64,000 bases of DNA from a virus: the IMG/VR virus record IMGVR_UViG_3300048907_000336; one strand, written 5' to 3'. The notes under the pieces are model-generated. The model was given only the letters and a program-made list of their open reading frames with translations. It was not told where the DNA came from and did no database searches. A program made the translations under genes and the position numbers. Position 1 is the first letter of the stretch. Every line of letters starts with the position of its first letter. This document shows, piece after piece, positions 39,188 to 55,877 of the stretch.

Positions 39188-39506
39188 AGTGCTTCAGTAT
39201 CCTGTCTACAACAGCTCCGATAATGCTGTCGGCTTCGCCACGACAATTGCGGGTGATGGCATTGGCAATGGTCTCCAACGGAGTGCCATGCTGCAGCGCC
39301 AACGATAGCAGGATCGCGCCGTCGCGGGTGATGGCGTCCATTTCGGTGCCGACCTGGGCTCCGCTGATGAACACTTCCTGAATTTGCCTGCGTCTGTCAA
39401 CATGGGCGTAACCGATGGTGACGCTGTAAGCACTACGGTGATTGCCGAAATGCAGCTCGAAAGTTTCATTCGGTCGGCGCTGCGGCAGGGTCAAACGGTC
39501 GGTCAT
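39174..39506 (-). CDS. stand-alone TSCPD-like domain (class II RNR C-terminal type)
   Basis: LPQRR...VTIGY...EVFI...GAILLSLALQHGTPLE. Confidence 0.65.
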   Translation of the reverse strand: MTDRLTLPQRRPNETFELHFGNHRSAYSVTIGYAHVDRRRQIQEVFISGAQVGTEMDAITRDGAILLSLALQHGTPLETIANAITRNCRGEADSIIGAVVDRILKHYEKT

Positions 39507-40015
39507 GACGGGCGACATTCTTTAAGCCAACGAAGCTGTTGCGCTTTGCTCATACGTTTTCTGGCAGCAATTGACACAGCTTTTTTAAAGTGTTTACTGC
39601 TGTCGCGCATCTTCTGTCGCGAAACTTCCGAGTGTTTTTTCCCGTAGAACGGGTTATCGGCACCCATACGCATTCGACTCAGTTTTACTTTCAGTTCGAG
39701 TGGCTGCTTGCGTCCTCGACATGCGCCGCCGTTGCCATGGTTGTGTCCATCAGGGTTGTTGTAGTTATTATCTGTGGCGTTTTGCGAAGCAGTTATACAC
39801 TCAACATTGGAGCGATGGTAATCTCCCATGTCACCTTTCCGTGCCATCACGAATTGATGACGCTTGCTGCCGCGTTTAGTAAGCCATTCCAAACCAAGAT
39901 GTTCCTCCCACCAAGCGACCCAATCTTCAAATGTAAAATGAAAAGCAATGCCACGTTTACGGCTCTCCATTCGTTGCCGACGAAAAGCATCAAATCTCTT
40001 ATCTTTGTAGGGCAT
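39503..40015 (-). CDS. HNH-like homing endonuclease with NUMOD3 motifs
   Basis: FTFEDWVAWW, MARKGDMGDY..SNV; NPFYGKKHSEVSRQKM; TAATG coupling to the helicase. Confidence 0.8.
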   Translation of the reverse strand: MPYKDKRFDAFRRQRMESRKRGIAFHFTFEDWVAWWEEHLGLEWLTKRGSKRHQFVMARKGDMGDYHRSNVECITASQNATDNNYNNPDGHNHGNGGACRGRKQPLELKVKLSRMRMGADNPFYGKKHSEVSRQKMRDSSKHFKKAVSIAARKRMSKAQQLRWLKECRPS

Positions 40016-41478
40016 TAAACAACCCATTTCTTATAGTCGTCGCCGGTGATGGCATCGCTCAGCGACATCTTGTTGCGCAGCGCGCCAAGCACTTTCTCTT
40101 CGACGGTGTCGAGGCAGACCAGATCGTAATACAGCACGCTGGTCTTCTTGCCGACCGCCTGGGCGCGCTCTTCGCTCTGGGCGCGGTGCTCGTAGTTGAA
40201 TGAGTTGGTGTAGTAGATCACCAGATCGGCGCTGTCCCAGGTACGGCCGCGTCCGCCCGATGCCGGAGTGGCAATCATGAAGCGACACTTTGGGTCATTC
40301 TTGAAGCGCGCTTCATCGGCCTCGCGGGTGTTGCGGTTGCCGCCCCAGAACCGGGCGCAGCAGCCGGGGCCGTAGGTCTTCTCCAGCACCGCCGCGATCT
40401 TCTTTACGTCGTGGTCGAACGTCGCCCAGATCACCGCCTTCTTGCCCACCCATTGCTCCAGAATGGCCAGCATTTCGGTGGTCTTGTTCTCGGGAATATC
40501 GACCGTGACGTCACCGTCGCTGGTGGTGTGACCGGCAACGATTTGCTGCAGCCGCAGCAGATGCGTCAGCACGTTCTGCGAGGTGACGTATTCCTGGTTG
40601 CCCAGCTTGGTGCGCGCGTATTCCTTCATCTCCAGATAGTTTTGTTTCTGCTTGGGCGTCAGCTCGACGTGGCGCACCATGTACTGCTTCTCCGGCAGGT
40701 CAGTGCAATCCTTCAGCAGCACCCGATACGAATGCTTGGCGATGGTGGCCTGCAGCTCGTCGAGCCGCTGGAAGCCCGACACGATCTCGATGATACGGCC
40801 GTTGCCGGTCTTGATCTGCCGGGTGATGGCGTAGCGATCCTGGAACGCCTTGAGGTCTTTGAATTCGGCAAAGATGCGCTTATCGAGAAAATTGAACTGG
40901 GTGTAGATGTCGAGCGGCGACTGCGGCGTCGGCAGTCCCGAGAGAATGCGGCGGCGCTTGCAGTGCGGGGCCGCTGCCAGACAGAACTTAGTGCGGTTGG
41001 CTTTGCCGCTCTTGATCACGGTGGATTCGTCGATCACCATCATGGTCGGCGCGGCCTTGATGAACCGCGCGCACAGCGCCTGGGCGAACTCGACCGTGGA
41101 CAGCGCCTCGATGTTCATCAGCAGGATCTTGGGGCCGCCCTGCTGCGGGATGCTGGCGAGCTTCTCGCGCGCCGCCGGGCCATCCTTGGAATCCCACAGT
41201 AAGAGCTTGACGCGCTTCGCCAGCTCGTCGCTGAGATGCTTCTCGGCATCGACCTTCCAGGTGCGGTAGACACCTGCCGGGGCGACGACGAGAAGATGCT
41301 GGATCTCGCCTTTGGCCTCCAGCTCGCCGAATTCGTCCAAAATGGTCTTGGTCTTGCCGGTGCGCATCTCCATGAAATAGGCGATGGCGGTGCGCTCGCG
41401 GCCTAGCTGAAGAGCAGACTCTTGATGTTTCCAGCGGGGGAGCTTCGGCGTGTACCCTTTGGCTCCAGCCAGTACCAG
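40015..41478 (-). CDS. SNF2-family helicase (start uncertain)
   Basis: MEMRTGKT, VIDES, LSGLPTP, QSEERAQAVG; no ATG near the expected N-terminus. Confidence 0.85.
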   Translation of the reverse strand: MVLAGAKGYTPKLPRWKHQESALQLGRERTAIAYFMEMRTGKTKTILDEFGELEAKGEIQHLLVVAPAGVYRTWKVDAEKHLSDELAKRVKLLLWDSKDGPAAREKLASIPQQGGPKILLMNIEALSTVEFAQALCARFIKAAPTMMVIDESTVIKSGKANRTKFCLAAAPHCKRRRILSGLPTPQSPLDIYTQFNFLDKRIFAEFKDLKAFQDRYAITRQIKTGNGRIIEIVSGFQRLDELQATIAKHSYRVLLKDCTDLPEKQYMVRHVELTPKQKQNYLEMKEYARTKLGNQEYVTSQNVLTHLLRLQQIVAGHTTSDGDVTVDIPENKTTEMLAILEQWVGKKAVIWATFDHDVKKIAAVLEKTYGPGCCARFWGGNRNTREADEARFKNDPKCRFMIATPASGGRGRTWDSADLVIYYTNSFNYEHRAQSEERAQAVGKKTSVLYYDLVCLDTVEEKVLGALRNKMSLSDAITGDDYKKWVV

Positions 41479-41729
41479 ACCTGCTCCCGGCGCACGCCCT
41501 CCCGGCACAGCTTGAACGGCTCGTCGTTGTCCGCGATCTTCTGCGCCAGCCTGATCATGATTGTGGACAGGATATTGCGCGGGTGCTTCACGTCCCATTC
41601 GGGATTGTGCTTCAACCGCACGAAAATCAGTTGTTTGAGGTTGACGCGGCCACCGTCCTGCGGGATGGCGGCGAACAGCTTGCGCTCCAGTTGATTGTAC
41701 TTGCGCAGCGGTTCGGTGCTCAGTTCCAT
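41403..41729 (-). CDS. putative winged-helix protein
   Basis: GGAG RBS 9 nt upstream; overlaps the helicase 5' end. Confidence 0.55.
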   Translation of the reverse strand: MELSTEPLRKYNQLERKLFAAIPQDGGRVNLKQLIFVRLKHNPEWDVKHPRNILSTIMIRLAQKIADNDEPFKLCREGVRREQVWYWLEPKGTRRSSPAGNIKSLLFS

Positions 41730-41753
41730 AGCTCATGACTCCAACATCCTTTT

Positions 41754-41770
41754 TGTCAACAATGTTGACA
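41754..41770. promoter_or_regulatory. 17 bp palindrome TGTCAACA-A-TGTTGACA
   Basis: Intergenic; contains TTGACA on both strands. Confidence 0.6.
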
Positions 41771-41791
41771 TAGTGCAGGACACGGGCGCTG

Positions 41792-42178
41792 TCAATGCTT
41801 CATCTTCGAAGGTGCGTCGTCGGTGTCCAGCAGGAACTGCAGCGACTCTTTGATCATGTCATCGAAGTCGGCGACTTTGATGCAATCGCGGCAGATACCC
41901 ACCACCATGCGGGTGTTGGGGTCGTCTAGCTCCGGCGTCAGCACGATCATGCCCAGCGGCTCGAACACATGCGGGTCGAACTTTATGCTGCGATTGGGAC
42001 AGCGCGGGTTCAGGCAGTGGCAGTCGTGATCGCCCTGGTCGATGTAGGCCGCCCAAGCCACCACCGCCTGCATCACGCACTTGGCGTTGCGGTTGCCGCG
42101 CCGGGCAGCGTCGTCGAACCGGCCGATATTATCCGGCGTGACCAGATAATAACTGCTGAGAATGGCTTGCTGGCTCAT
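41792..42178 (-). CDS. putative Zn-binding protein
   Basis: CHC..RC and CRDC; GGAGG RBS. Confidence 0.55.
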   Translation of the reverse strand: MSQQAILSSYYLVTPDNIGRFDDAARRGNRNAKCVMQAVVAWAAYIDQGDHDCHCLNPRCPNRSIKFDPHVFEPLGMIVLTPELDDPNTRMVVGICRDCIKVADFDDMIKESLQFLLDTDDAPSKMKH

Positions 42179-42402
42179 ATCCAGACCTCCACGATAGTAG
42201 CGTCGTCTCCGACTTGGCGCGGGGTGTAGATCAAGCCAAACGGCAGCAGGGCTCGCACTTCGGCCAGAGTGTCGGCGGTGTACATATCGTGAGTCGGGGT
42301 CACGCTGTGGGTGCCGACCTCGAACCGGCGTGCCACGAATTGGCCGGGATGGTCTACCGGGTTGTGGTAGATCGTCCACATGTGAAGCACGGGCTCGGTC
42401 AT
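42175..42402 (-). CDS. hypothetical phage protein
   Basis: WTIYHNPVDHPGQFVAR..ADTLAEVRALLP..DDATIVEVW. Confidence 0.6.
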   Translation of the reverse strand: MTEPVLHMWTIYHNPVDHPGQFVARRFEVGTHSVTPTHDMYTADTLAEVRALLPFGLIYTPRQVGDDATIVEVWI

Positions 42403-42722
42403 CAGACTTGATCGGGCTTGAGCTTCAGCCGCACCATCAGCGTCACCAGCTTGCCGATGGCAGTGGAGATCGGCACGTCTCCCGCCACCAGACGATGCCC
42501 GGTGCGCTGGCTCATGCCAAGCCACTGTCCGACATCCGACGGGGTTAACCCCAGCTTTTCGATGGCCAGGGCGAACTCGGCCGAATTCATCTTGCCGTCG
42601 AACCACGTCAGTTCGCTGCGGGTCATCGGCTCAAGCTGACGCGCGATGTCCTCGCGAACTTGCATCTTCAGGACCGGCGGCTTCTTGAAGCGCGGCCGTC
42701 CAGCTTCCTCGGTTTTATACAT
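42402..42722 (-). CDS. HTH DNA-binding protein
   Basis: EKLGLTPSDVGQWLGMSQRTGHRLVAG; GAGGAG RBS. Confidence 0.7.
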   Translation of the reverse strand: MYKTEEAGRPRFKKPPVLKMQVREDIARQLEPMTRSELTWFDGKMNSAEFALAIEKLGLTPSDVGQWLGMSQRTGHRLVAGDVPISTAIGKLVTLMVRLKLKPDQV

Positions 42723-42743
42723 GGCGCAATACTCCTCGCCTTT

Positions 42744-42772
42744 AACTTAAGACATGCTGTCTATTTTGTCAA
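42744..42772 (-). promoter_or_regulatory. sigma70-type promoter with a spacer palindrome
   Basis: TTGACA-N17-TAAGTT; AGAC-N5-GTCT within the spacer. Confidence 0.7.
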
Positions 42773-43317
42773 GAGAACAGCTTGCTGGGGTACTTCTGCT
42801 CGGCGTAGCGCAGGCGCGGGCCGCCGCTGTGCTTTTTATCCCAGATGAACCATGCGTGGTTGAGGCTGCCGCTGACGCCGTTGAACCAGCGAATGCGGTT
42901 GAGCAGGGTCAGCTTGATGGCAAAGTGCGGGCAGTCGGCAAACACCGCGCGCCGGGTCTTGCCGCTGTCGTAATCGACCGGCAGCAGCATGGCGATTCTG
43001 AGGTTGCAAACCTGCAGGGCGCGTCTGATGAACAGCAGCGCATCGCGACCGCCGATACCAAATGGCGGGTTGGTGACGATATTGCAGTTAGGCCAGCGAA
43101 ACCTGTCGGTCAGGAAATTATATTGGTTGGTGATGTCGTCACCGACAGCGTGGTAACCGTTGGCAATCAGCACGTTGAGGATCGCGCCGTCGCCGCAGGC
43201 CGGGTCGCAGACCCGGTGCTGAAAGCCGACGTGATCGAGCAGTGCTTGAGTGGCTTCCGGTGGCGTGGCGTAGAAGTCATTAGGCTTGCGTGGGTAGTCG
43301 GCACCGCGCTTGGTCAC
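42769..43317 (-). CDS. orphan DNA adenine methyltransferase
   Basis: DFYATP, DPACGDG (motif I), VTNPPF (motif IV). Confidence 0.85.
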   Translation of the reverse strand: MTKRGADYPRKPNDFYATPPEATQALLDHVGFQHRVCDPACGDGAILNVLIANGYHAVGDDITNQYNFLTDRFRWPNCNIVTNPPFGIGGRDALLFIRRALQVCNLRIAMLLPVDYDSGKTRRAVFADCPHFAIKLTLLNRIRWFNGVSGSLNHAWFIWDKKHSGGPRLRYAEQKYPSKLFS

Positions 43318-43327
43318 TTCATCCTCT

Positions 43328-43528
43328 TCACAGGTACTGCGCCTTTTCCTTCGCCGTCAGTTCGCGGATGTGCACGTTCATCCAAGCGTCGGCCTTGACC
43401 AACCCGCGCTTGGCGTCCTCTTGCAGTTGCTGCTGCCGCAGCATGGCGCGAGTGTCGGCCAGTTCGCGGGTCTCGAAATCTTCGTGGCAAATGCCATCTC
43501 CGCAGGGGAAGAGAACGCGATACTTCAC
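43328..43528 (-). CDS. hypothetical protein
   Basis: Coupled small ORF. Confidence 0.45.
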   Translation of the reverse strand: MKYRVLFPCGDGICHEDFETRELADTRAMLRQQQLQEDAKRGLVKADAWMNVHIRELTAKEKAQYL

Positions 43529-43713
43529 GGGTTCACTCGCTTATTATCAACAGGGTTATACCTGTCATCGAACAGGTAATCGTAGGGGTTTTGCACAGGG
43601 TTATCGACAGGTGTCTGCTGCATCGGTTTCGCAACCGTACGGCCAACGGCTTGGGTGTAGATAATCAGAAATATCCCCAGGTAAATAACAGTGAACCACA
43701 GTGCTGCAGTCAT
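43525..43713 (-). CDS. single-TM protein with PVDNP repeats
   Basis: N-terminal TM helix; tail encoded by DnaA-box-like repeats. Confidence 0.45.
   Translation of the reverse strand: MTAALWFTVIYLGIFLIIYTQAVGRTVAKPMQQTPVDNPVQNPYDYLFDDRYNPVDNKRVNP
43544..43609 (+). promoter_or_regulatory. DnaA-box-like cluster
   Basis: TTATCAACA (43544), TTTTGCACA (43589), TTATCGACA (43601), each followed by GG. Confidence 0.4.
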
Positions 43714-43970
43714 TGAACTTTCTTCTCTTTGTTCTTGCGGTCCCAATACCGCAAACAGGTGCCGACACCCGGGATCAGGTAGGCCATGTCGCTGCTCATG
43801 ATCAAAAGGCTCAAGGCTCCGAAGCCGACGCAAATTAAAAAACCCTGCCAGCCTGCGTAATAGGCGTAGTAGGCAGTGGTGGCGATCATGCCAAAGACGG
43901 CACCGTAAGCGATGAGATAGTCCCAGAACCACGGTTGCTCATCGAGCCAAACGAAAAATCGTCTGATCAT
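43710..43970 (-). CDS. two-TM membrane protein
   Basis: Two hydrophobic segments and a basic tail. Confidence 0.55.
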   Translation of the reverse strand: MIRRFFVWLDEQPWFWDYLIAYGAVFGMIATTAYYAYYAGWQGFLICVGFGALSLLIMSSDMAYLIPGVGTCLRYWDRKNKEKKVQ

Positions 43971-44152
43971 TTCCAAGGGTTCCCGGTTTTCTTGGCATCG
44001 TATGCTTTCAACTTACGCAGGATACGTGAGATCGCGCTGTAGTTAAGCCCGAAGCGTTCGCCGATAACTCGCAGCGAATACCCAGCGCGGTGCATTTTGA
44101 CGACCCGCGCCAATTGTTTTTCGGTCAGCTCTTCTTCAGCACGTGGCCCCAT
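43967..44152 (-). CDS. small HTH protein
   Basis: GYSLRVIGERFGLNYSAISRIL. Confidence 0.65.
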   Translation of the reverse strand: MGPRAEEELTEKQLARVVKMHRAGYSLRVIGERFGLNYSAISRILRKLKAYDAKKTGNPWK

Positions 44153-44227
44153 ACGCCTATATCTTCATCGTGGGAGCGCCCCTGCTACGGGGCTCGTTTC
44201 AGGGACGCTCCCGTCGATCAGCGCCGG

Positions 44228-44923
44228 TTAGGCACCGATAGCGTTAGCGGGGACAGAACCACCCGCACGGCGTTTCTGTTTCCACGCACCCCAGAGCGCG
44301 AGCCCGCCGAAGATCAACCCGGGCAAGCCAGCACCGGCAAGGGGTCCAGGCACCGCCGCTGCCGACGCCGACAGCGCGCCACCGAGATTGGCCGCACCGG
44401 CACCGGTGGTGACGATGTGGAAATCGACACTGGCGTTGAACGTCCCCGGCAAATTGAAGGCGTTCAAGCTGGAATCGTGGCCGCCGCTGACCGGCCCGGT
44501 GAACGTTGACGACGCGATGATCTGATTGTTGATATCGGTCGAAATCGTTGCGGTCCAGCCGCTCGACAACCCGGTGGCGTCGAAGCCACTGAGCAGAGCC
44601 GACAGCCCAGAGCCGGTCACGCCGATACCCAGCACCTGGAGGTCCAGGGTATGCGAGGTCGTGCTCTGCGACTGGATGTCGATAGTCTGGCCCTGAAGAA
44701 TCCCAGGAGCAGGCAGCGTGCCCTGGGTCGCCCCGGTAGCCAGGATGGTGAAGTCGCCGAACACCACCGGCCCCAACGTGGCCGACGACTGCCCGGTAGC
44801 GATAGTCTGAGTAGCACCGCCGTCTTCCGACGCGGTGAAGGTGATTGACGCCGCCCTCGCGGTGGCAATCGTTCCCACCACTGCCGCAACGGCGACAGCG
44901 GTGAGCAACAGTTTTTTATGCAT
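44228..44923 (-). CDS. secreted protein with a PEP-CTERM-like sorting signal (copy 1)
   Basis: Signal peptide ending ARA; S/T/G-rich, Cys-free body; VPGPLAGAGLPGLI + TM + KQKRR; GAGGAG RBS. Confidence 0.85.
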   Translation of the reverse strand: MHKKLLLTAVAVAAVVGTIATARAASITFTASEDGGATQTIATGQSSATLGPVVFGDFTILATGATQGTLPAPGILQGQTIDIQSQSTTSHTLDLQVLGIGVTGSGLSALLSGFDATGLSSGWTATISTDINNQIIASSTFTGPVSGGHDSSLNAFNLPGTFNASVDFHIVTTGAGAANLGGALSASAAAVPGPLAGAGLPGLIFGGLALWGAWKQKRRAGGSVPANAIGA

Positions 44924-45001
44924 GCATGCACTCCTCTGATCGAGCCCGGCACGGCCGTGCCGAACTATCAGTCAGGGTCGCCCCTAACCGATTCCGGTTT
45001 T

Positions 45002-45082
45002 TCATAGGCCCCTCAACGTCACGCCAACCATCACGACAACGGCCAGCACCAGCATCCAAATCAGCCAGCCGTTCCCTGACAT
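45002..45082 (-). CDS. 26 aa single-TM peptide (absent from the ORF track)
   Basis: MSGNGWLIWMLVLAVVVMVGVTLRGL*; starts 2 nt after the upstream stop. Confidence 0.4.
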   Translation of the reverse strand: MSGNGWLIWMLVLAVVVMVGVTLRGL

Positions 45083-45083
45083 G

Positions 45084-45395
45084 TCATTGCTTCAGCCGGG
45101 GGTCGTTGCCGTCCATGTGGCGCAGCTCGTGGCCGCTGGCGTCATACAGCGTACGCGCGCCGTCTTTATCGACCACCATCGACGCCAGCAGCGTGCCGTC
45201 GGTATCGCGAAAGTAGACGGTGTTGCCGGTCATCGTCGCGGTGCCGATCTTCTCATTGTTGAGATTGACCATCGGCACCGTCTTCGGCCCCGACGACGGC
45301 AGTGGCACGACTTGCGGGATTTGCAGCGGCTTGGCGGGATCTTGCTGCGCTGACGCAGCGGTAGTCAGAATTAGTAACAGAAGTAGAGTTCGCAT
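45084..45395 (-). CDS. secreted/periplasmic protein
   Basis: Signal peptide MRTLLLLLILTTAASA-Q; AAGGAG RBS. Confidence 0.65.
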   Translation of the reverse strand: MRTLLLLLILTTAASAQQDPAKPLQIPQVVPLPSSGPKTVPMVNLNNEKIGTATMTGNTVYFRDTDGTLLASMVVDKDGARTLYDASGHELRHMDGNDPRLKQ

Positions 45396-45409
45396 CTTAA
45401 GCTCCTTGT

Positions 45410-45724
45410 TCAGTTCTTTGTCCTAACATTGTTAATAGCAACAATGCGCGGGTCGCCAGCGATTTGCAGCCGTTCGGCATCGGTGGGATCACGCAGTTGC
45501 AACGCTTTGGTAAAGACCATGATGTGCCCGCAATAGAAACAAACGGTGGCATCGCCTGCCGTGGGGGCCGAAGCGTCGAACGGGTTGTGTGCGGCGCGCA
45601 CCATGCGGCGGCAGTTGGTGCAACGCGCGCCGGGAACGTCAACGGTAGTGCCGGGCCTCGTGGGCTTCTGGCTTCCCGGTTGCCGCATCACTGTCACATC
45701 CCACTTGAAGTAGCTCCTTCTCAT
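45410..45724 (-). CDS. Zn-finger protein
   Basis: CTNC...CFYC. Confidence 0.6.
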   Translation of the reverse strand: MRRSYFKWDVTVMRQPGSQKPTRPGTTVDVPGARCTNCRRMVRAAHNPFDASAPTAGDATVCFYCGHIMVFTKALQLRDPTDAERLQIAGDPRIVAINNVRTKN

Positions 45725-45805
45725 CCCGCCGTTGGAACTACATTGCTGGCACGGTCACCTGAGAGGTGGAAGCCGAACAGATGACCGTGACGGGACAGCC
45801 TGGAC

Positions 45806-46468
45806 CTACGCGAAGCGGCGGTTCCTACGCCGTTTGTGGAAACCCCACAATCCCAAACCGGCCGCGATCAGGCTGGGAAGCCCCGCACCTGCCACCGGCC
45901 CCGGCACCGCCAGGGGAGAGGCCACATCGACGCGGTAGTGTTCGAAGTCGGTGATGGTGCCGCCGACATCAAGGAGCGTGAACTTGTTGATGGTCTCACC
46001 GTTGATCGCAGTCAACGTGAAGCCATTCTGGCCAGGACCGAGTGGGCCAAAGAGGGAGAGCAGGTCGAAGGTGAACAGCTTGGTGGTGCCGTTGGCTTCG
46101 TTGGCCGTCACGCCCACGGTCACGTCACCGGTGCCGGTGATCGAGAACACATCGGTCTGCGTCGGCAGCACGGTCGTGCCAGCAGTGTTGAAGACCTGGA
46201 CCGACAGGTTGGTCAGACCGTCGGCCGTGATCTTGAGATCGTTGCCGCTTTGCGCGCCAACGAAGTTGGTGCAGCCACCCAGGCAGTTGAAGTCAACGAG
46301 GCCTGAATGCTGGCCGTTGAAAGTGCCGACGACTTGCGTGGACGACGAGGATTGAAACACCACGTTGTCGCCGGTGCCCGACAAACTGTCATTGATGATA
46401 ACGTCGGCTTTCGCCGGAAGTGCTGCCATCAGCAAAGCGGCTGACGCCAGGAGCAATGCGCGTTTCAT
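45806..46468 (-). CDS. secreted protein with a PEP-CTERM-like sorting signal (copy 2)
   Basis: Signal peptide ending AKA; VPGPVAGAGLPSLI + TM + HKRRRNRR; AGGAG RBS. Confidence 0.85.
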   Translation of the reverse strand: MKRALLLASAALLMAALPAKADVIINDSLSGTGDNVVFQSSSSTQVVGTFNGQHSGLVDFNCLGGCTNFVGAQSGNDLKITADGLTNLSVQVFNTAGTTVLPTQTDVFSITGTGDVTVGVTANEANGTTKLFTFDLLSLFGPLGPGQNGFTLTAINGETINKFTLLDVGGTITDFEHYRVDVASPLAVPGPVAGAGLPSLIAAGLGLWGFHKRRRNRRFA

Positions 46469-46694
46469 TATGTCGTTACTCCTATTTACGGACGGGATTG
46501 TCCGCGATGCTAGCTTCCTCCAGCGTGGTAGAAGCTATTCCGGGTTTTTAACACAAGTCTGGCAGGCGAGTTTCTTGTTGATTGTTTTGTTTTCGGCTTG
46601 TCCAAAAGATAGCGATTGGGGTATTGAGGAGACTTGTACTCTTTCAACACTCCTTCTTGCCCGGCGTCGGCTGTCACCCGCGCCGGGCCTTTTC

Positions 46695-46970
46695 TCACTC
46701 ATCCCCCTGCAGATTCTTGTAAATCGCCGCGTGGGGATAGGTCTTGCCCGCGCCGCAGACCACGCAGCAGCCATGGCCGAACGCGAAGCTGCCGTGGTAG
46801 CCTTCGCAGAAACCGTTGCCACAGTGCTTGCAGTAGCGTGCAGTCTCGACCCGGCGGCGGAAGGCATCTGCGCACAGACGGCAGGTCGCCCAATTGCCCG
46901 CTTCGATAACTTCCTGGGCGGTGAACTTCTTCGGCGCGGGAGGCTGAGCAAACGCGACTGGCATCGGCAT
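46695..46970 (-). CDS. Cys-rich Zn-finger protein
   Basis: CRLC, CKHC, CEGYH, CCVVC. Confidence 0.6.
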   Translation of the reverse strand: MPMPVAFAQPPAPKKFTAQEVIEAGNWATCRLCADAFRRRVETARYCKHCGNGFCEGYHGSFAFGHGCCVVCGAGKTYPHAAIYKNLQGDE

Positions 46971-47010
46971 ACGCGGTACTCCTTGGTTTTGTCAATCTGT
47001 CATATTCGCT

Positions 47011-48126
47011 TCAGGGCTGGGCATTGTCAACATGTTTGACAACGTAGTCGGTGATGTTGAAGCCGACGCCGGTGTCGCCCCGCACATGCTCGTGCACCAG
47101 GATGCGCCTGCCTCCGCATTCACTACAAGCCTGCTCCTGGGTCCACAGATGGACGCCGGTGGCGAGAAACGCCGGGCAGGTAGGTGAGACAGGGTTGCGC
47201 CAATCCCGCCGCCAGTGAGCCCGTACGGGACCGCCAGCGCGCTTCACCATCGAGCCTAAGGTTCGCGCCGCCAGCGCAGGCTGCGACTTGCGCGGCACGT
47301 TGATGGTGATGGTGTGGTAGTCGAGGTAGCTGCGAACGCGCCCCTTGCCCAGGAAACTGCCGGTGGTGAGCACCGGCGTGGTGCGCACCGGGATGTCATC
47401 GATGCAGGCGAGGAAGGCCCAAGCTCGGCGCATCACGCCAACCCACTCCTTGATTAGGTTGATGATGGTTTCCTTGTTCTCCTCGCGAAACACCTGTGTC
47501 GGCACCCACGGTGAATTGGTGATGCTGATGTGACTGTCGTCGTAGTTATAGATCCCGGTGGCAGAGGCACCGCTGTTGCTGACCAGCGAACGCCACGGCG
47601 GCACTTCGTCGTTAATGGTCCAGCAGTACATCACCGGGAAAGTCCAGATTTGAAACCCACGTGCATCTGGCTCCGGGCTGTGAGTGAACACGCTCATACA
47701 CAGAGCATTGCCGCGCTGCTCGATCAGCCAGCCTTCGGTCTTTGGCATCTGCTCCGGCGGTGTGTAGCGGCCCAGCAATTCATTGCTGCGGCTCATGGCG
47801 CGGCGCAGATCGTATTCGATCCAGGTGATCTCGTGCGGCGCACATGCGCTGACCCGCAGCGCCTCCAGCCGCTTGAGCCGCAGTTGCTGCTGTGCAGCCG
47901 TAGCCGGGGCAGGCAGCAGCGGCTGCTGCTCTGGCACCATGTTCTTGAACACGAAAGCGCGGGTCGCCAACTCGCCGAGAAATTCCGACATCGATTCGTC
48001 GAGGATAAAACGTTTCGCTTTCATGAATTTTTGTCGGAGCGTGAGATTGTCGATCCAAGCGGTTTTGGTGTCGTTGCGAAACGTCTCGCGGTACAGCATG
48101 CCGATCAGGTTGGGTGCCTGCGTCAT
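47011..48126 (-). CDS. conserved hypothetical phage protein
   Basis: 371 aa; VRAHWRR, CSEC and HEHVRG motifs. Confidence 0.65.
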   Translation of the reverse strand: MTQAPNLIGMLYRETFRNDTKTAWIDNLTLRQKFMKAKRFILDESMSEFLGELATRAFVFKNMVPEQQPLLPAPATAAQQQLRLKRLEALRVSACAPHEITWIEYDLRRAMSRSNELLGRYTPPEQMPKTEGWLIEQRGNALCMSVFTHSPEPDARGFQIWTFPVMYCWTINDEVPPWRSLVSNSGASATGIYNYDDSHISITNSPWVPTQVFREENKETIINLIKEWVGVMRRAWAFLACIDDIPVRTTPVLTTGSFLGKGRVRSYLDYHTITINVPRKSQPALAARTLGSMVKRAGGPVRAHWRRDWRNPVSPTCPAFLATGVHLWTQEQACSECGGRRILVHEHVRGDTGVGFNITDYVVKHVDNAQP

Positions 48127-48917
48127 GACAGCCTCGTCTGCTGGTGCTGGCCGATGTAGCCGATCACGACCTGCTTCTTGACTTCGTCAAAGAAGAACGC
48201 AATGCGAATAGTGTGACGGGCGTCACGGTTGCCGCCGTAGGCTAGATGCTCACGCAGCAGCACGGTCTCGCCGCGATATTTCACTTCGTAGTCAGATTTA
48301 TAAAACCCCATTGTTACTTCTGACTGATGCGGCGCATAGGAGAAACCGCAATGGCCACGGCAACTGGCGTCGAGATCGGCGCAGCGTTCGGTGCCCAGCT
48401 TGGCATCGCGGTAGGTGCTGGCCAGCCAGAGCATTGCCAGATACAGCTCCTCGCCGTGCTCGAACCGTTTGGCCTCCTTGGTCACCCGGTTGTCGAGGAT
48501 GGTGATCGCCCCGTGGAAATCCAGCCGTGCGCTCAGCAAAGCTTCGTCGGCGGTCATCTTGTAGTCAGGCATGGTTGTTAACTCGACGCCTTTGTGGATG
48601 GCATCGACATAGACGCCGAGATAGGCACGTCGCCAACGTTGGGCCTCCTTCTCGACCGCCTCCGATTGTTTCTTCAAATCGGTTGGCATGTGTTCCCACA
48701 CGTACTTCTGGGCATCTTCATAAGCCGCCTTGTAGATTTCATCGAAACGCTGATCGACAAAGGCGTTGGCACGGGCCTTCATGCGTTCCCATTCCTTCTG
48801 GGCCGAAGCGTCGAACATCTCCATGCCGGTGGAGATCGCCAGCTCGCGGGCGGCTGGCGGCAGGCTGTCGATCTTGCGGTCGATGGACTTCTGACGTCGG
48901 CGTGCAAAGCGGTTCAT
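48123..48917 (-). CDS. protein with a possible RelE-like C-terminal fold
   Basis: YAPHQSE...EHLAYGG..RIAFFFDEVKKQVVIGYIGQH. Confidence 0.55.
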   Translation of the reverse strand: MNRFARRRQKSIDRKIDSLPPAARELAISTGMEMFDASAQKEWERMKARANAFVDQRFDEIYKAAYEDAQKYVWEHMPTDLKKQSEAVEKEAQRWRRAYLGVYVDAIHKGVELTTMPDYKMTADEALLSARLDFHGAITILDNRVTKEAKRFEHGEELYLAMLWLASTYRDAKLGTERCADLDASCRGHCGFSYAPHQSEVTMGFYKSDYEVKYRGETVLLREHLAYGGNRDARHTIRIAFFFDEVKKQVVIGYIGQHQQTRLS

Positions 48918-49201
48918 CGTCGTGGCTCCTGTTCAAGAAGGTGTTGGATGATCGCCTCGATCTCGTTGGTGACCTGGGTAATCTTGCGCAGCCGCTTGGT
49001 ATGGTCGGCCGCAGCGCAACTGTAAGCGCCGTGGCCTTGGGTGTAATAATCGCGACCGTGCGGGGCGGCGAGGCACATGGTTTCGTAGGCTTCGCGCAGC
49101 CGCCGGTGCGCGCAGGTGTACTGCGACAGCAGTTCATCCCGGCTGGTACCGTTGAGGTGCACAGTCGGCATCGCGTAGTCGTGTTTGATTCGTCGGCTCA
49201 T
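48914..49201 (-). CDS. hypothetical phage protein
   Basis: PTVHLNGTS...PHGRDYYTQG. Confidence 0.6.
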   Translation of the reverse strand: MSRRIKHDYAMPTVHLNGTSRDELLSQYTCAHRRLREAYETMCLAAPHGRDYYTQGHGAYSCAAADHTKRLRKITQVTNEIEAIIQHLLEQEPRR

Positions 49202-49428
49202 AGCTCTAACTTCCTGCGCCAGTATTCGAAATCGGGATGGGCTTCCCACTCGGCAATGGTGACCACCACCGGCTCTTCCCCGCACGAGGGGGTTTTGCTC
49301 TTCCAGCTATTGCAGTGTTTCCAGCCGCCCTGCCAATTCTTGGCAGGGACACCGCAACGAACGCAGATCAAGTTCGTGGTTCGTCGTAACAAATCAACCA
49401 TGTCAATCGACCCTCGCGTTTTGTTCAC
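49198..49428 (-). CDS. small Zn-finger-like protein
   Basis: CVRC...HC..C; ATGA coupling. Confidence 0.45.
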   Translation of the reverse strand: MNKTRGSIDMVDLLRRTTNLICVRCGVPAKNWQGGWKHCNSWKSKTPSCGEEPVVVTIAEWEAHPDFEYWRRKLEL

Positions 49429-49625
49429 GAGCCCGGTCGGCGTTGCAGTACGGGCAGCCGCCCGGTTGGCATTCGGTGCGGGACAGGCGTTGCAGCAACG
49501 TTTTCAGCGTTGTCCTTTCACTACCATGGGGGGCGTAGCGAGCCTGATACAGTTGCAACGCCGTGCTAAGCACTGTGCGTTCAGCATAAGTTTTGAGACG
49601 AAACTCGTTTAGTTTAAGTCCCACC

Positions 49626-49850
49626 TCAACCTCCTATCTTTAGCCAGCGGCCGTCGGGTTGCTGCTTGTAATGTTGCCCTGCGCCGGTGCCGAGAACGCC
49701 GATGCCGTAGATGCGCCAACTAACCATCGACATGGTGGCCCAAGCGGTGTGGCCATGCAGCTTGCCGTCCACGAACTCATCGAAGATCGGCACGCCGAAG
49801 TCGTCGTGGGTGGGGACATCCCCCATCCAGTAGCGCGGTTTGTCGGTCAT
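49626..49850 (-). CDS. hypothetical phage protein
   Basis: FVDGK..AWATM..LGTGAGQHY..DGRWLK. Confidence 0.6.
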   Translation of the reverse strand: MTDKPRYWMGDVPTHDDFGVPIFDEFVDGKLHGHTAWATMSMVSWRIYGIGVLGTGAGQHYKQQPDGRWLKIGG

Positions 49851-50044
49851 GTGGTGCTCTCGGTTATTGACCTAACGAACAGCTTGGCAGCAGCCAAGGA
49901 TGGCGCTTCATGCAACACGTCGCTGCCATCCAGACGTGGCATCTCGACCCGCCAGATATCTCTGACGCGCTTGATTGACCCAACAAGGATGTTGCTGTCA
50001 CGAATGATCAGCACAGTGTCCTCGTCAACCAACTGAAAGTCCAT
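49847..50044 (-). CDS. hypothetical protein
   Basis: GAGGG RBS; ATGA coupling. Confidence 0.45.
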   Translation of the reverse strand: MDFQLVDEDTVLIIRDSNILVGSIKRVRDIWRVEMPRLDGSDVLHEAPSLAAAKLFVRSITESTT

Positions 50045-52955: not shown

Positions 52956-55877
52956 TCAGTCCTTTTTGTAGCGGTCGCCCTGCCACGCCTTGGCCGCGAT
53001 GGGAAAACCTTTGGCCCAATGCGGCACCATCTCCATGATGGTCCTGAACTCCTTGGCACTGCGTGTAGCCGGTGCCTCGGCGACCACCTCGTCGTGCACG
53101 GTCAACACCACCGGATATCCGGCGGCATTCACCCGCAGCATCGCTTCGGCCATGACGTCGCGCGCCAGCCCCTGCACAGAATTTTCAACGAGCAAGCCGC
53201 CATATGCCGAGATCCGGCCCCAATGCGACGAGTGGGTTTCCTCCTTGATCACGCGCTTGGCGTTGCTGGGGTTGATCGTGGTCTTGTAGGTTAGCATTGG
53301 TTTCTTCTCGCCCCACGGCGTCGGCAACTGCATCACTTTGGCATAAGGGTAGCAGAGGCAGCGGCCGCTCGGCAGTTGCATGTACAGGAACGGCCCGCGC
53401 ATGCGGTAGCGAATGCGGCCGCAGCTGGTGATGCGGCCGGGCGACTGCACCGCACCGATGGCGGCCCATTCCATGGCAGGCCAGAACTCCACCGTGCGCG
53501 GGTGCGCCGAACGCCATGCTATTTTCAGTTCGTCGGCGCGCTCGTTGCTCACCTTAACGCCGTAACCGGCGGCCATGGTTTGGAAGGCACCGATGCCGCC
53601 CTGATAGCCGCAGTTATGCACAAGCAAAGGCCCCAGGCTCGTAACAATCATGAACCGATTGCGCGGCCCCGCATCGGCAATGTCGAAGACAGGCTTCAAG
53701 TTCGGTGATGCGGTCTTGCAATTGTCGAACTTTTCTACGGGTGTCTGTGTTGCTTTGGTGGGTAACGAAACGAAGGTTGCCCGGTTCGTAATTGCCGTCG
53801 GTGTTAACCCGATCCAGTTCAAGCCTCGGTTTATTCCAACCCGGCAACTTGGCAATATACGCCAGAAAGGCGCGACGATCTTTGCGCCAAGCTTCACAAA
53901 CGCTGATGCCGCGACCGCCGTAACTGTGGTAACCGGCATCATTAGGGTTGCCGCACCGATTAATGGCTGCGGAGATCCGATTGAGTAATCGACGCCGGTG
54001 CTTGGCGTCGGGAACAATGTCAGCATAGCCGTGATAATGTTTGCGCCAGTGACCGGCTTTCTTTTTCGCGCACACATTACATGCAGTCGATCTGCCTTTG
54101 TGCAGGTTATAGAGGTGAACCGGGTGAGGAGCCGCGCCGCAATCACACTGAACGATGACACGCCACAAGCCGCCAGCAGACCCGTACGTGTAGTTGACCA
54201 CGGTAAGCTGACCAAACCTGTCGCCAAGCTTTGGGACAGGATGTTTGCGTCGGAAACGAGTTGCTGCGCCTGCGTCCACGTTTCTTTGGTTAAAATTAAA
54301 TGATCCCGCGTTAGCTCGGTGTCGCCCACACATACAACCGGGCGCACACCTTTTGCCACCAAACCGTTGTGAGTTACCCATTCAACACCATCCCACAATC
54401 TATCAGTTAAAGCTACATCGACGATGCGCTTAATTCCATTATTAGTTAATACTCGCGTATCAGCACCAAGACAAGCCAATTCCATCACCTTGCCGATCTG
54501 GCGCATGTGATCGTCGATCTTATCGAGCGGCACGTGAAACGCGCGTGAATAGGCAAGCTTGTAGATGTCAGGGCCGGTGCCTGCATCGTAGGCTTCGAAC
54601 GCCATCACTTTCCAATTCTCATTGACCAGCCACGCTAGCCCACGGCCTTCAATGTTAGAAAAGTCAGCAGCAAACAAATGATTGCCGGGCGCAGCGATGA
54701 TCATCCCTCTGATGATGTCGCTGATGACGTTGATCGGGCCGTCGAATATCTCGATGCCCAGCATCTGCTTACGGCGCACCAGATCGATCAGCACGTCTTG
54801 ATTCTTATTCACCGGCCGCTTGATGTTTTGCGGTTGGAAACGACGCCCAGCCCAGCGGCCGGTGGTGGCAGCATGATAGGCAAGCAAACCACGCACGCGG
54901 CCATCGGCCGATGCGTCGGTCAGCAGCGCCTGGATTTTCTTGACGCTGACTTTGGACGCCTCCTGCCGGATCTCCAGCACCCGTCGGACACTGGGCGGCA
55001 GGTCGTCGCGCGCCAGGAGCTTGCCCAGCTCCTCCTTGGCGATGGAGCTTAGCTCCTCGTCGTCTTCGTCCTTAAGCCCGTGGCGTTTGCAGTAGTTGAT
55101 GATCTGCGCCACGCTCGACGTGGTCAGCACCTCGCTGTCGGAAGCTTCGCGAATGTCCTTGTTGAGCTGCTTGAGCGCCACCTCGATCATGTCGCGCGCG
55201 ATCTCGCACAACTCGCGGTCCACCAGCAGGCCCCGGTCGTTGATCTCCTGATCGAGCAGCCAGATCTTGTGCTCCTGGGCGGTGAGATGGAACAGCCGGT
55301 TGTGCAGGGCGCGCTCGACCTCGACGTCGCGAATGCAGTACTCGATCAGCCGTTGCAGCCGGGCCGGGTCGTCGTCCCACCATACGGGGTTACCGAATAG
55401 ATCGATGCGCCGTGGGCGGCTCATGGTGAGCATTAGGCGATGGCCTTCGGCGTCCTTGCTCAGAGGAAGGCCGACCGACGAAGCCGCATCAGCGAGGCTC
55501 CCTGGCAAAGCCTGGGCATAGGCACGGGCCATGGTGCATCCCCAGGCCTGGGGCCGGGGCACCGACCAGCCGTACTTGGGGCCAAGCTTGTGCTGCCACA
55601 TCAGCCGTTCGAACTGGGTATTGTGAGACAGCATGTTGCCGCCGTTCTCGATGTGCTCACACAGCACCCAGGGCTTGCGCTGCCCCGGCACCCAGGTCTG
55701 CACCGGGCCGTCGTCGATGGCGTAGCAGACGCACCAGATGTCGGTCTGGGGGTGAGCGGCGTAGACGTAGATGCCGTGCTTGCGCAGCTCGACCGTGGCA
55801 CGCGATTCGATATCGACGAAGGCGTTGCGGGTCTTGGAGCCGACCAGCCGCAGCTTGGTTTTAAGTTCTTGCTTCAT
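52956..55877 (-). CDS. family A DNA polymerase containing an intein
   Basis: Exo DIES/HNTQFER; TGRWAG; motif A ADFSNIE; motif B RQIGKVMELA|CGYQGG; motif C TVHDE. Confidence 0.95.
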   Translation of the reverse strand: MKQELKTKLRLVGSKTRNAFVDIESRATVELRKHGIYVYAAHPQTDIWCVCYAIDDGPVQTWVPGQRKPWVLCEHIENGGNMLSHNTQFERLMWQHKLGPKYGWSVPRPQAWGCTMARAYAQALPGSLADAASSVGLPLSKDAEGHRLMLTMSRPRRIDLFGNPVWWDDDPARLQRLIEYCIRDVEVERALHNRLFHLTAQEHKIWLLDQEINDRGLLVDRELCEIARDMIEVALKQLNKDIREASDSEVLTTSSVAQIINYCKRHGLKDEDDEELSSIAKEELGKLLARDDLPPSVRRVLEIRQEASKVSVKKIQALLTDASADGRVRGLLAYHAATTGRWAGRRFQPQNIKRPVNKNQDVLIDLVRRKQMLGIEIFDGPINVISDIIRGMIIAAPGNHLFAADFSNIEGRGLAWLVNENWKVMAFEAYDAGTGPDIYKLAYSRAFHVPLDKIDDHMRQIGKVMELACLGADTRVLTNNGIKRIVDVALTDRLWDGVEWVTHNGLVAKGVRPVVCVGDTELTRDHLILTKETWTQAQQLVSDANILSQSLATGLVSLPWSTTRTGLLAACGVSSFSVIAARLLTRFTSITCTKADRLHVMCARKRKPVTGANIITAMLTLFPTPSTGVDYSIGSPQPLIGAATLMMPVTTVTAVAASAFVKLGAKIVAPFWRILPSCRVGINRGLNWIGLTPTAITNRATFVSLPTKATQTPVEKFDNCKTASPNLKPVFDIADAGPRNRFMIVTSLGPLLVHNCGYQGGIGAFQTMAAGYGVKVSNERADELKIAWRSAHPRTVEFWPAMEWAAIGAVQSPGRITSCGRIRYRMRGPFLYMQLPSGRCLCYPYAKVMQLPTPWGEKKPMLTYKTTINPSNAKRVIKEETHSSHWGRISAYGGLLVENSVQGLARDVMAEAMLRVNAAGYPVVLTVHDEVVAEAPATRSAKEFRTIMEMVPHWAKGFPIAAKAWQGDRYKKD
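53613..54473 (-). mobile_element. intein (287 aa) in polymerase motif B
   Basis: Starts CLGADTRVLT; block B TRDH; block F VFDI; ends LVHN followed by Cys+1; removing it restores KVMELA-CGYQGG. Confidence 0.92.
53614..54381 (-). CDS. HNH homing endonuclease nested out-of-frame inside the intein
   Basis: GDRFGQLTVV..VQCDCG, RCGNP..YGGRGISVC, LELDRVNTDGNYEPGNLRF; alternative start GTG 54279. Confidence 0.85.
   Translation of the reverse strand: MGNSQRFGGKRCAPGCMCGRHRANAGSFNFNQRNVDAGAATRFRRKHPVPKLGDRFGQLTVVNYTYGSAGGLWRVIVQCDCGAAPHPVHLYNLHKGRSTACNVCAKKKAGHWRKHYHGYADIVPDAKHRRRLLNRISAAINRCGNPNDAGYHSYGGRGISVCEAWRKDRRAFLAYIAKLPGWNKPRLELDRVNTDGNYEPGNLRFVTHQSNTDTRRKVRQLQDRITELEACLRHCRCGAAQSVHDCYEPGAFACA

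Follow-up and report, generated by a model that had tools for sequence, protein, structure and literature searches.

Two secreted proteins encoded by an uncultured phage share a PEP-CTERM-like C-terminal tail that is exchanged among related phage proteins

Two secreted phage proteins and their common tail

Within a stretch of viral DNA of 64,000 nucleotides (IMG/VR record IMGVR_UViG_3300048907_000336; the whole stretch is called the window hereafter), two genes, here named pA and pB, encode proteins with an N-terminal signal peptide, unrelated bodies and a common C-terminal tail. The tail reads AVPGP[LV]AGAGLP[GS]LI and is followed by 10-12 hydrophobic residues and then by a basic cluster, which is KQKRR in pA and HKRRRNRR in pB. 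In our view it is a tripartite sorting signal of the PEP-CTERM class that has not been catalogued so far, as judged among other things from its exchange with catalogued signals of this class in related phage proteins. The two genes and the gene between them (sec103) are organized as follows (ORF, open reading frame; TM, transmembrane).

45806 to 46468, minus strand: pB, a secreted beta-sandwich protein of 220 amino acids with a VPGP-GAGLPS tail, from the ORF list
46406 to 46468, minus strand: signal peptide of pB, residues 1-21, ...LPAKA/DV (cut before DV), read from the sequence; model helix at residues 2-14, hydrophobic segment from residue 1
45809 to 45907, minus strand: tail of pB, residues 188-220, consisting of VPGPVAGAGLPS, the TM helix and HKRRRNRR; 62.4 bits with the tail profile, model helix at residues 196-219
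46479 to 46483, minus strand: Shine-Dalgarno sequence AGGAG, 10 nucleotides 5' of the start codon of pB
44228 to 44923, minus strand: pA, a secreted all-beta protein of 231 amino acids with a VPGP-GAGLPG tail, from the ORF list
44852 to 44923, minus strand: signal peptide of pA, residues 1-24, ...ATARA/AS (cut before AS), read from the sequence; model helix at residues 3-17
44231 to 44353, minus strand: tail of pA, residues 191-231, consisting of VPGPLAGAGLPG, the TM helix, KQKRR and an extension of 11 residues; 50.4 bits with the tail profile
44931 to 44934, minus strand: Shine-Dalgarno sequence GGAG, 7 nucleotides 5' of the start codon of pA
45084 to 45395, minus strand: sec103, a protein of 103 amino acids with a signal peptide and no tail, supported by an ORF and a ribosome-binding site

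The start codon of both pA and pB is ATG, and both N-termini are predicted to be of the Sec type, with a basic n-region, a hydrophobic core and an Ala-x-Ala site. The bodies of the two proteins are unrelated by BLASTP (E > 2), and a profile-profile comparison of the two protein families with hhalign aligned only the last 39 columns, which correspond to the tail, with a probability of 98.5% and an E value of 2.4e-15. A profile of 39 tails (A2, with 39 positions) scored 62 bits for pB and 50 bits for pA and matched no other ORF of the window. The sequence, the hydrophobic segments and the C-terminal helices of the structural models agree in placing the tripartite arrangement at the extreme C-terminus of proteins that start with a signal peptide.

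The AlphaFold2 model of pB (predicted local distance difference test score, pLDDT, of 80) comprises the signal helix, a beta-sandwich and the C-terminal helix, and its nearest clusters in AlphaFold DB are mostly annotated as PEP-CTERM and in one case as VPLPA-CTERM. The matches of pB in the PDB are generic beta-sandwiches similar to carbohydrate-binding modules, with template modelling scores (TM-scores) of 0.26-0.39, and a specific ligand is not supported. For pA, the model is of low confidence (pLDDT 61) and its fold matches are to be taken as leads only; the nearest clusters in AlphaFold DB and the ESM Atlas are PEP-CTERM proteins, several of them virus-dominated, and in one ESM Atlas cluster 69% of the members carry PF07589 and 82% of the taxa are viral.

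Besides pA and pB, the window contains phage genes for a portal, a sheath, tail fibres, a terminase, an endolysin, two helicases, a DNA polymerase, a methyltransferase and a primase-polymerase, and no integrase was found among the window ORFs scanned. Both genes are located between a phage helicase and the polymerase on the same (minus) strand, in a replication-side block. The 2.2-kb stretch is present, nearly unchanged, in at least 21 soil and root metagenome runs, and positions 40000-50000 are tiled at even depth by contigs from four non-source runs, which bridge pA, pB and their flanks. Among GenBank phages, neither the region nor pA or pB had a match at the DNA or protein level, no cultured relative is known, and PHROG gave no informative family for either protein. 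Because of the phage gene content, the recurrence across runs, the even depth and the bridged junctions, misassembled host DNA is very unlikely, and the two genes are genuine accessory genes of the phage.

These results agree in large part with an initial annotation of this DNA, which had been made from the letters of the sequence. The two ORFs, their ribosome-binding sites, signal peptides, unrelated bodies and common tail are borne out by the coordinates, the Shine-Dalgarno sequences, BLASTP and the profile comparison, and the proposal that the genes are phage-encoded is supported by the phage genes of the window, the homologous viral loci, the recurrence in metagenome runs and the bridging contigs. 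The absence of an exosortase from the window was also confirmed, as none of its ORFs matched a profile of exosortase-like proteins and no credible polytopic membrane ORF was seen. On the other hand, the bodies had been described as low-complexity, which does not hold; that of pB is a confident beta-sandwich.

Exchange of the tail among related phage proteins

We found 267 homologues of pB, all of them metagenomic, a further set of 87 pB loci in IMG/VR, and 17 homologues of pA, all of which are VPGP-tailed. In the alignment of the pB family (A1), conservation of the body extends to ...FEHYR(I/V)D-x(3-7)-VP, beyond which the sequence continues either as GP..GAG.PG or as EP..W.MM, with a TM helix and basic residues after either form, and a third class of tail, [VT]PLPA..., is present in viral pB loci. 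Of the 44 invariant columns of the family, only the two that correspond to VP fall in the tail, the other 42 belonging to the body or the signal peptide. The PEP-tailed homologues pass the models TIGR02595 (17-24 bits, cut-off 16) and NF035944 (PEPxxWA-CTERM; 35-38 bits, cut-off 35), and some of the VPLPA-tailed ones pass TIGR03370 (cut-off 25.35 bits), such as both tailed proteins of locus L077 (29.1 and 31.3 bits). In a FastTree phylogeny of the bodies of 175 pB homologues, nearly all viral or metagenomic, from which the tails had been excluded, parsimony gave 24 changes of tail type, at least 11 of them forced by well-supported branches, compared to a shuffled mean of 46. As judged from this alignment and tree, the same position of the body takes a VPGP, a PEP-CTERM or a VPLPA-CTERM tail, and the tails have been repeatedly swapped.

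When one genome for each of 185,579 species was searched, pB gave a single full-length match, on contig DASXJB010000068.1 of a Xanthobacteraceae metagenome-assembled genome (MAG; locus L003). This protein is the same as that of IMG/VR locus L047, with an equal length and identity across the C-terminal 48 residues shown; the two contigs are also of nearly equal length. Its VPLPA-like tail reaches only 7.8 bits against the cut-off of 25.35 of TIGR03370. The gene is preceded by a NusG-like gene and followed by an HNH-like gene, and the sequence probably represents a phage contig binned into the MAG. The other three of the four bacterial matches to the pB family were rejected: on inspection, L004 proved to be an unrelated protein of the dehydrogenase type in which only ITDFEHYRVD is shared, and L005 and L006, equally short matches to this motif (28-35 residues), were discounted on these grounds.

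The type of tail was also concordant within the phages compared. Of 36 viral loci with at least two tailed ORFs, corresponding to 26 after duplicate removal, all 26 had one tail type per locus (17 VPGP, six VPLPA-like and three PEP), a concordance inflated by the sampling, in which the motif scan favours VPGP. In 25 of these 26 loci, the tailed bodies had no BLASTP similarity to one another, and the tails within one locus often agree even in their fine sequence. On a 61-kb phage-like contig with Cro-like, MT-A70 and YqaJ genes, a PEP-tailed pB homologue is followed consecutively by two more PF07589 proteins.

Regarding the distribution of the tail, a search of 1.84 billion representatives with the A2 profile gave 5,727 matching clusters at E <= 0.001, of which 490 reached E <= 1e-10. 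Among the best 150 matches, the tail was C-terminal in 143 and contained LPG in 149; the contigs of the best metagenomic hits are too short to be informative. An exact scan of IMG/VR for the back-translated motif yielded at least 119 stretches, and in the viral loci examined the motif was present in 90 ORFs, in all 90 at the C-terminus, on at least 14 body families. The tail can be regarded as a large C-terminal domain family, comprising thousands of protein clusters, that is unannotated and now labelled 'hypothetical' by pipelines. Several of the best metagenomic hits had two matched stretches (P0138-P0143, P0152) and are gene calls spanning two neighbouring tail-protein genes; therefore, tailed proteins also occur in tandem arrays.

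Tail carriers and exosortase-like genes in bacterial genomes

PEP-CTERM proteins have been defined by their signature, their layout, their occurrence in multiple copies and the co-occurrence with an exosortase (Haft et al. 2006, PMC1569441). We detected the tail in 14 of 201 Xanthobacteraceae genomes and in six of 401 genomes of the order Rhizobiales. Genome G159 has 14-15 tails on unrelated bodies ending in ...VPGPIAGAGLPGLI.A.GGLL.WWRRR, and its relatives G613, G611, G594, G604 and G608 have 2-6 tails each (six in G613, five in G611). Multiple copies on different bodies, as in the PEP-CTERM definition, are thus found in G159, G613, G611 and G432 (six copies), which are candidate host lineages and not a proven host. 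No homologues of the pA or pB body were found near the tails in the tail-bearing genomes. Several tail genes of G159 are located on short contigs beside serine-recombinase/resolvase genes and LigD-like fragments (L098 1329-1739, L100 4322-4816, L106 3823-4503), suggesting that the bacterial tailed proteins may ride on mobile elements too.

Among the genomes of the order, a gene of the exosortase/archaeosortase family was present in all six tail-positive ones and in seven of the 395 others (Fisher p = 3e-10), with four of the six tail-positive genomes having supplied seeds of the exosortase-like profile used. The product of this divergent gene belongs to the exosortase/archaeosortase family according to its scores with TIGR04178 (at least 23 bits; six-frame scores of 23.0-33.5 bits in G424, G432, G485 and G535), its polytopic membrane topology and its conserved Cys, Arg and His, which are invariant in the alignment of exosortase-like proteins (A3) as C229, R275 and H290. 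No named Xrt subfamily model was matched, and only the generic TIGR04178 was reached.

A sister flavour of the tail, in which AP[GAL]P..[GA].GLP and a hydrophobic residue precede a TM helix and RRR, is carried by small Gly-rich secreted proteins, and its gene directly adjoins the exosortase-like gene in at least 12 genomes (G013, G018, G035, G119, G378, G466, G278, G498, G081, G127 and G485, with a variant in G063/G111). In terms of gene order, this is the classic signature of a cognate pair of signal and enzyme. The small Gly-rich protein and the divergent exosortase-like gene constitute an uncurated Rhizobiales system (L113 in G485, L131, L136-L138, L163-L167, L172-L173), and a conserved protein of ~160 amino acids often follows the pair (L111, L113, L114).

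A putative sorting signal and its proposed match to the host

Considering the above, we regard it as rather probable that pA and pB are phage proteins with a PEP-CTERM-class tail that is matched to a membrane sorting enzyme of the host, by which they would be sent to the cell surface or the exopolysaccharide. In the scheme we propose, Sec would export both proteins, and the C-terminal module, consisting of VPGP-xx-GAGLP(G/S), the TM helix and the basic cluster, would hold them in the inner membrane with the beta-sandwich body in the periplasm. The module would then act as a sorting signal, of the same tripartite class as PEP-CTERM but absent from the catalogues. A membrane enzyme of the host would recognise its signature at the edge of the helix that faces the periplasm, and would cleave the protein or transfer it toward the outer surface or the exopolysaccharide. 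This enzyme might be exosortase-like in some lineages, with no such match in the lineage that has the most phage-like tails. As the phage encodes no sorting enzyme, it would depend on that of the host, and phage lineages would exchange their tails (VPGP, PEP-CTERM, VPLPA-CTERM) to match their hosts. Since the exchange with two recognised exosortase signals is repeated and concerted, the tail appears to be a recognition module that needs to match something in the host, and the exchange would be otherwise hard to explain. The cleavage and surface display of pA and pB are inferred; as to their role, we can only speculate that they might remodel the surface or exopolysaccharide of the infected cell, for example by blocking the adsorption of other phages, binding polysaccharide or altering aggregation.

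Several results weigh against this scheme. The Pro-Glu-Pro signature of PEP-CTERM is absent, as pA and pB read V-P-G-P, and across 105 tails the residue at this position was Gly in 89, Ala in 12 and never Glu. None of the NCBIfam and Pfam models of C-terminal sorting signals (PEP-CTERM, VPLPA, VPEID, IPTL, MYXO and others) reached its cut-off with pA, pB or VPGP-tailed relatives of them; neither protein matched TIGR02595, PF07589 (cut-off, the Pfam gathering score) or TIGR03370 at E <= 10, and the VPGP-tailed relatives P0019, P0005, P0011, P0016 and P0017 were also below the cut-offs of TIGR02595 and PF07589. The residue after GLP is hydrophobic in the sister flavour but Gly in the phage tails (Ser in pB). 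No exosortase hit was obtained for the GAGLPG flavour, which is represented by six genomes (the G159 clade), in searches of the whole clade with A3 and TIGR04178, of five genomes with TIGR02602 and of G159 only with PF09721, none of 41 genomes, this clade included, was over the cut-off of 84 bits for rhombosortase (TIGR03902), and all-against-all clustering of the neighbours of 20 tail genes revealed no common membrane protein. RNA runs did not contain the 2.2-kb stretch. Recombination between tails, rather than selection, could be partly behind the concordance within loci, and the inflation of this concordance and the seeding of the exosortase-like profile by tail-positive genomes have to be counted here as well.

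Genome incompleteness is unlikely to account for the missing exosortase because it would have to apply to six genomes. The exosortase profiles gave at most chance hits in the G159 clade, one weak hit being a wrong-frame artefact over a flagellin-like gene, and generic rhomboids were found in 40 of the 41 genomes irrespective of tails. A myxosortase-type, Cys-containing signal was set aside, the tail having no invariant Cys.

Since no curated model detects their tail, pA and pB are not members of PEP-CTERM or VPLPA-CTERM, and since the GAGLPG genomes have no detectable exosortase, rhombosortase or recurrent membrane neighbour, we prefer to describe the tail as an orphan among the sorting signals of the PEP-CTERM class. 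The initial annotation had assigned both proteins to the PEP-CTERM/VPLPA-CTERM type, of which the class-like tripartite layout stands, together with the interchangeability with real PEP-CTERM and VPLPA tails in homologues, but not the membership; it had also named the lack of a match to models of exosortase substrates as evidence against itself, and in this narrow sense the result goes against it. Its suggestion of an alphaproteobacterial host fits the tails found in Xanthobacteraceae and Rhizobiales genomes, but the use of a host exosortase is unproven for the phage flavour, with an exosortase homologue in none of the six GAGLPG genomes and only the sister flavour linked to such a gene. A more specific version, which we put forward tentatively, is that VPGP-xx-GAGLPG is an orphan signal spread largely by phages and mobile elements, that the host enzyme is not a recognisable exosortase and that soil phages have cassettes of proteins destined for the surface or the exopolysaccharide, the tails of which they exchange at host shifts.

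The main rival explanation is that the tail is a mere stop-transfer anchor, by which both proteins remain attached to the inner membrane and face the periplasm, where they would act, for example by blocking DNA entry as known exclusion proteins do, the VPGP/GAGLPG residues serving as a hinge or in helix packing instead of enzyme recognition. The lack of a detected sorting enzyme in the six GAGLPG genomes, whose tails are the most similar, the lack of a match to any curated sorting-signal model and the position of the GAGLPG residues inside the predicted helix of the pB model would all be consistent with such an anchor. However, eight invariant residues are kept over unrelated bodies and thousands of clusters, and a near-identical flavour adjoins an exosortase-like gene. 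In addition, the tail is repeatedly exchanged for two recognised exosortase signals, and in a concerted manner within a phage, which counts against a plain anchor because such an anchor need not match anything. We thus consider it an unlikely explanation, although one to be taken seriously.

It is quite improbable that pA and pB are decoys made in bulk to saturate or jam the host sorting enzyme and thereby prevent the display of the host's own surface proteins, among which might be phage receptors or floc proteins. The dependence on a host system that the tail swapping implies would fit decoys, but nothing specific speaks for them, whereas the pB body is conserved and folded (42 of its 44 invariant columns lie outside the tail, and the pLDDT is 80) and a single cassette can combine several different body families; because the bodies are folded and under clear constraint, they would have a function of their own. 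A host origin of the segment, as a chromosomal island or an assembly chimera, is hardly tenable: the tail is also found in bacterial genomes, in part beside recombinases, but the genes are on the same strand between a phage helicase and polymerase, the depth is even with junctions bridged by contigs of four independent runs, and the 87 IMG/VR loci with pB homologues stand against one full-length match among the genomes of 185,579 species, which is the same protein as that of L047.

Comparing the proposed sorting signal with known systems, PEP-CTERM/exosortase (EpsH, XrtA; TIGR02595, PF07589) is similar in the signal peptide, in the Pro-containing signature abutting a TM helix and followed by a basic cluster, in the diverse and mostly non-enzymatic bodies, the multiple copies in some genomes and the soil niche, and true PEP-CTERM tails replace the phage tail in orthologues. 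It differs in that the phage tails have VPGP-xx-GAGLPG and not Pro-Glu-Pro, that curated models do not score them, that the genes are phage-borne and that no EpsH/Xrt homologue was detected in the bacterial clade with the closest tails. VPLPA-CTERM/XrtD (TIGR03370, TIGR04152), an alphaproteobacterial variant of PEP-CTERM, shares the V-P-x-P core, and tails that pass its model are found on pB homologues of other phages; it differs in that pA and pB do not match TIGR03370 and that the GAGLPG block has no counterpart. Both the tripartite layout and orphan sorting signals have been described in a preprint (Haft 2023, 10.1101/2023.06.07.544157). The NCBI 'choice-of-anchor' families and WGxxGxxG-CTERM (10.1101/2023.06.07.544157) are alike in combining one body with C-terminal anchors that vary by lineage and in having a signal with no known cognate enzyme, whereas the pB family is mainly phage-carried and its anchor differs between close phage genes, in concert for the members of a cassette.

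Phage moron or superinfection-exclusion proteins of the envelope, such as Imm and Sp of T4, SieA of P22 and the lipoproteins Cor and Llp, have N-terminal TM segments or lipoboxes. Like pA and pB, they are small phage proteins of the envelope, dispensable for virion assembly and encoded outside the structural module; in contrast, no sequence or PHROG relationship to pA or pB was found. We know of none with a C-terminal signal of the exosortase type. Besides, full-text literature searches combining phage with PEP-CTERM or exosortase gave no paper that deals with exosortase substrates encoded by phages, and the sole related mention was a passing one, concerning a mobile element of Dehalococcoides with a PEP-CTERM domain.

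Sorting of the exosortase type is a widespread and little-studied route by which soil, sediment and floc-forming bacteria decorate their surface or slime layer. If phages routinely used this route, it would represent a new kind of dependence of phage on host and a possible way to alter aggregation, adsorption and exclusion in soils and on roots. The type of tail would then be a readable marker of the sorting system, and hence of the host group, of an uncultured phage, the concerted tail swapping providing a clue to the host from the sequence only. The natural tail swaps also offer a ready-made system for learning what sorting enzymes recognise, and models for the tail and for the divergent exosortase-like gene would improve annotation.

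The untailed protein encoded between pB and pA, sec103, is a probable member of the same cassette, with homologues (32-36% identity) that adjoin pA-like genes in L055 and L068 and a pB homologue in L002. The three genes also occur jointly on other phage backbones, with a helicase and a polymerase that share only 22-58% identity with their counterparts in the window. Starting 2 nucleotides past the stop of sec103, an ORF of 26 codons (45002-45082, minus strand) encodes one hydrophobic helix (MSGNGWLIWMLVLAVVVMVGVTLRGL) and may represent a small membrane peptide, or have arisen by chance.

Elsewhere in the window, residues 488-795 of the DNA polymerase (52956-55877, minus strand), located between two polymerase parts, match an endonuclease PHROG, which suggests an inserted homing element or an intein. 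A protein with a NUMOD3 motif (39503-40027, minus strand) adjoins the helicase.

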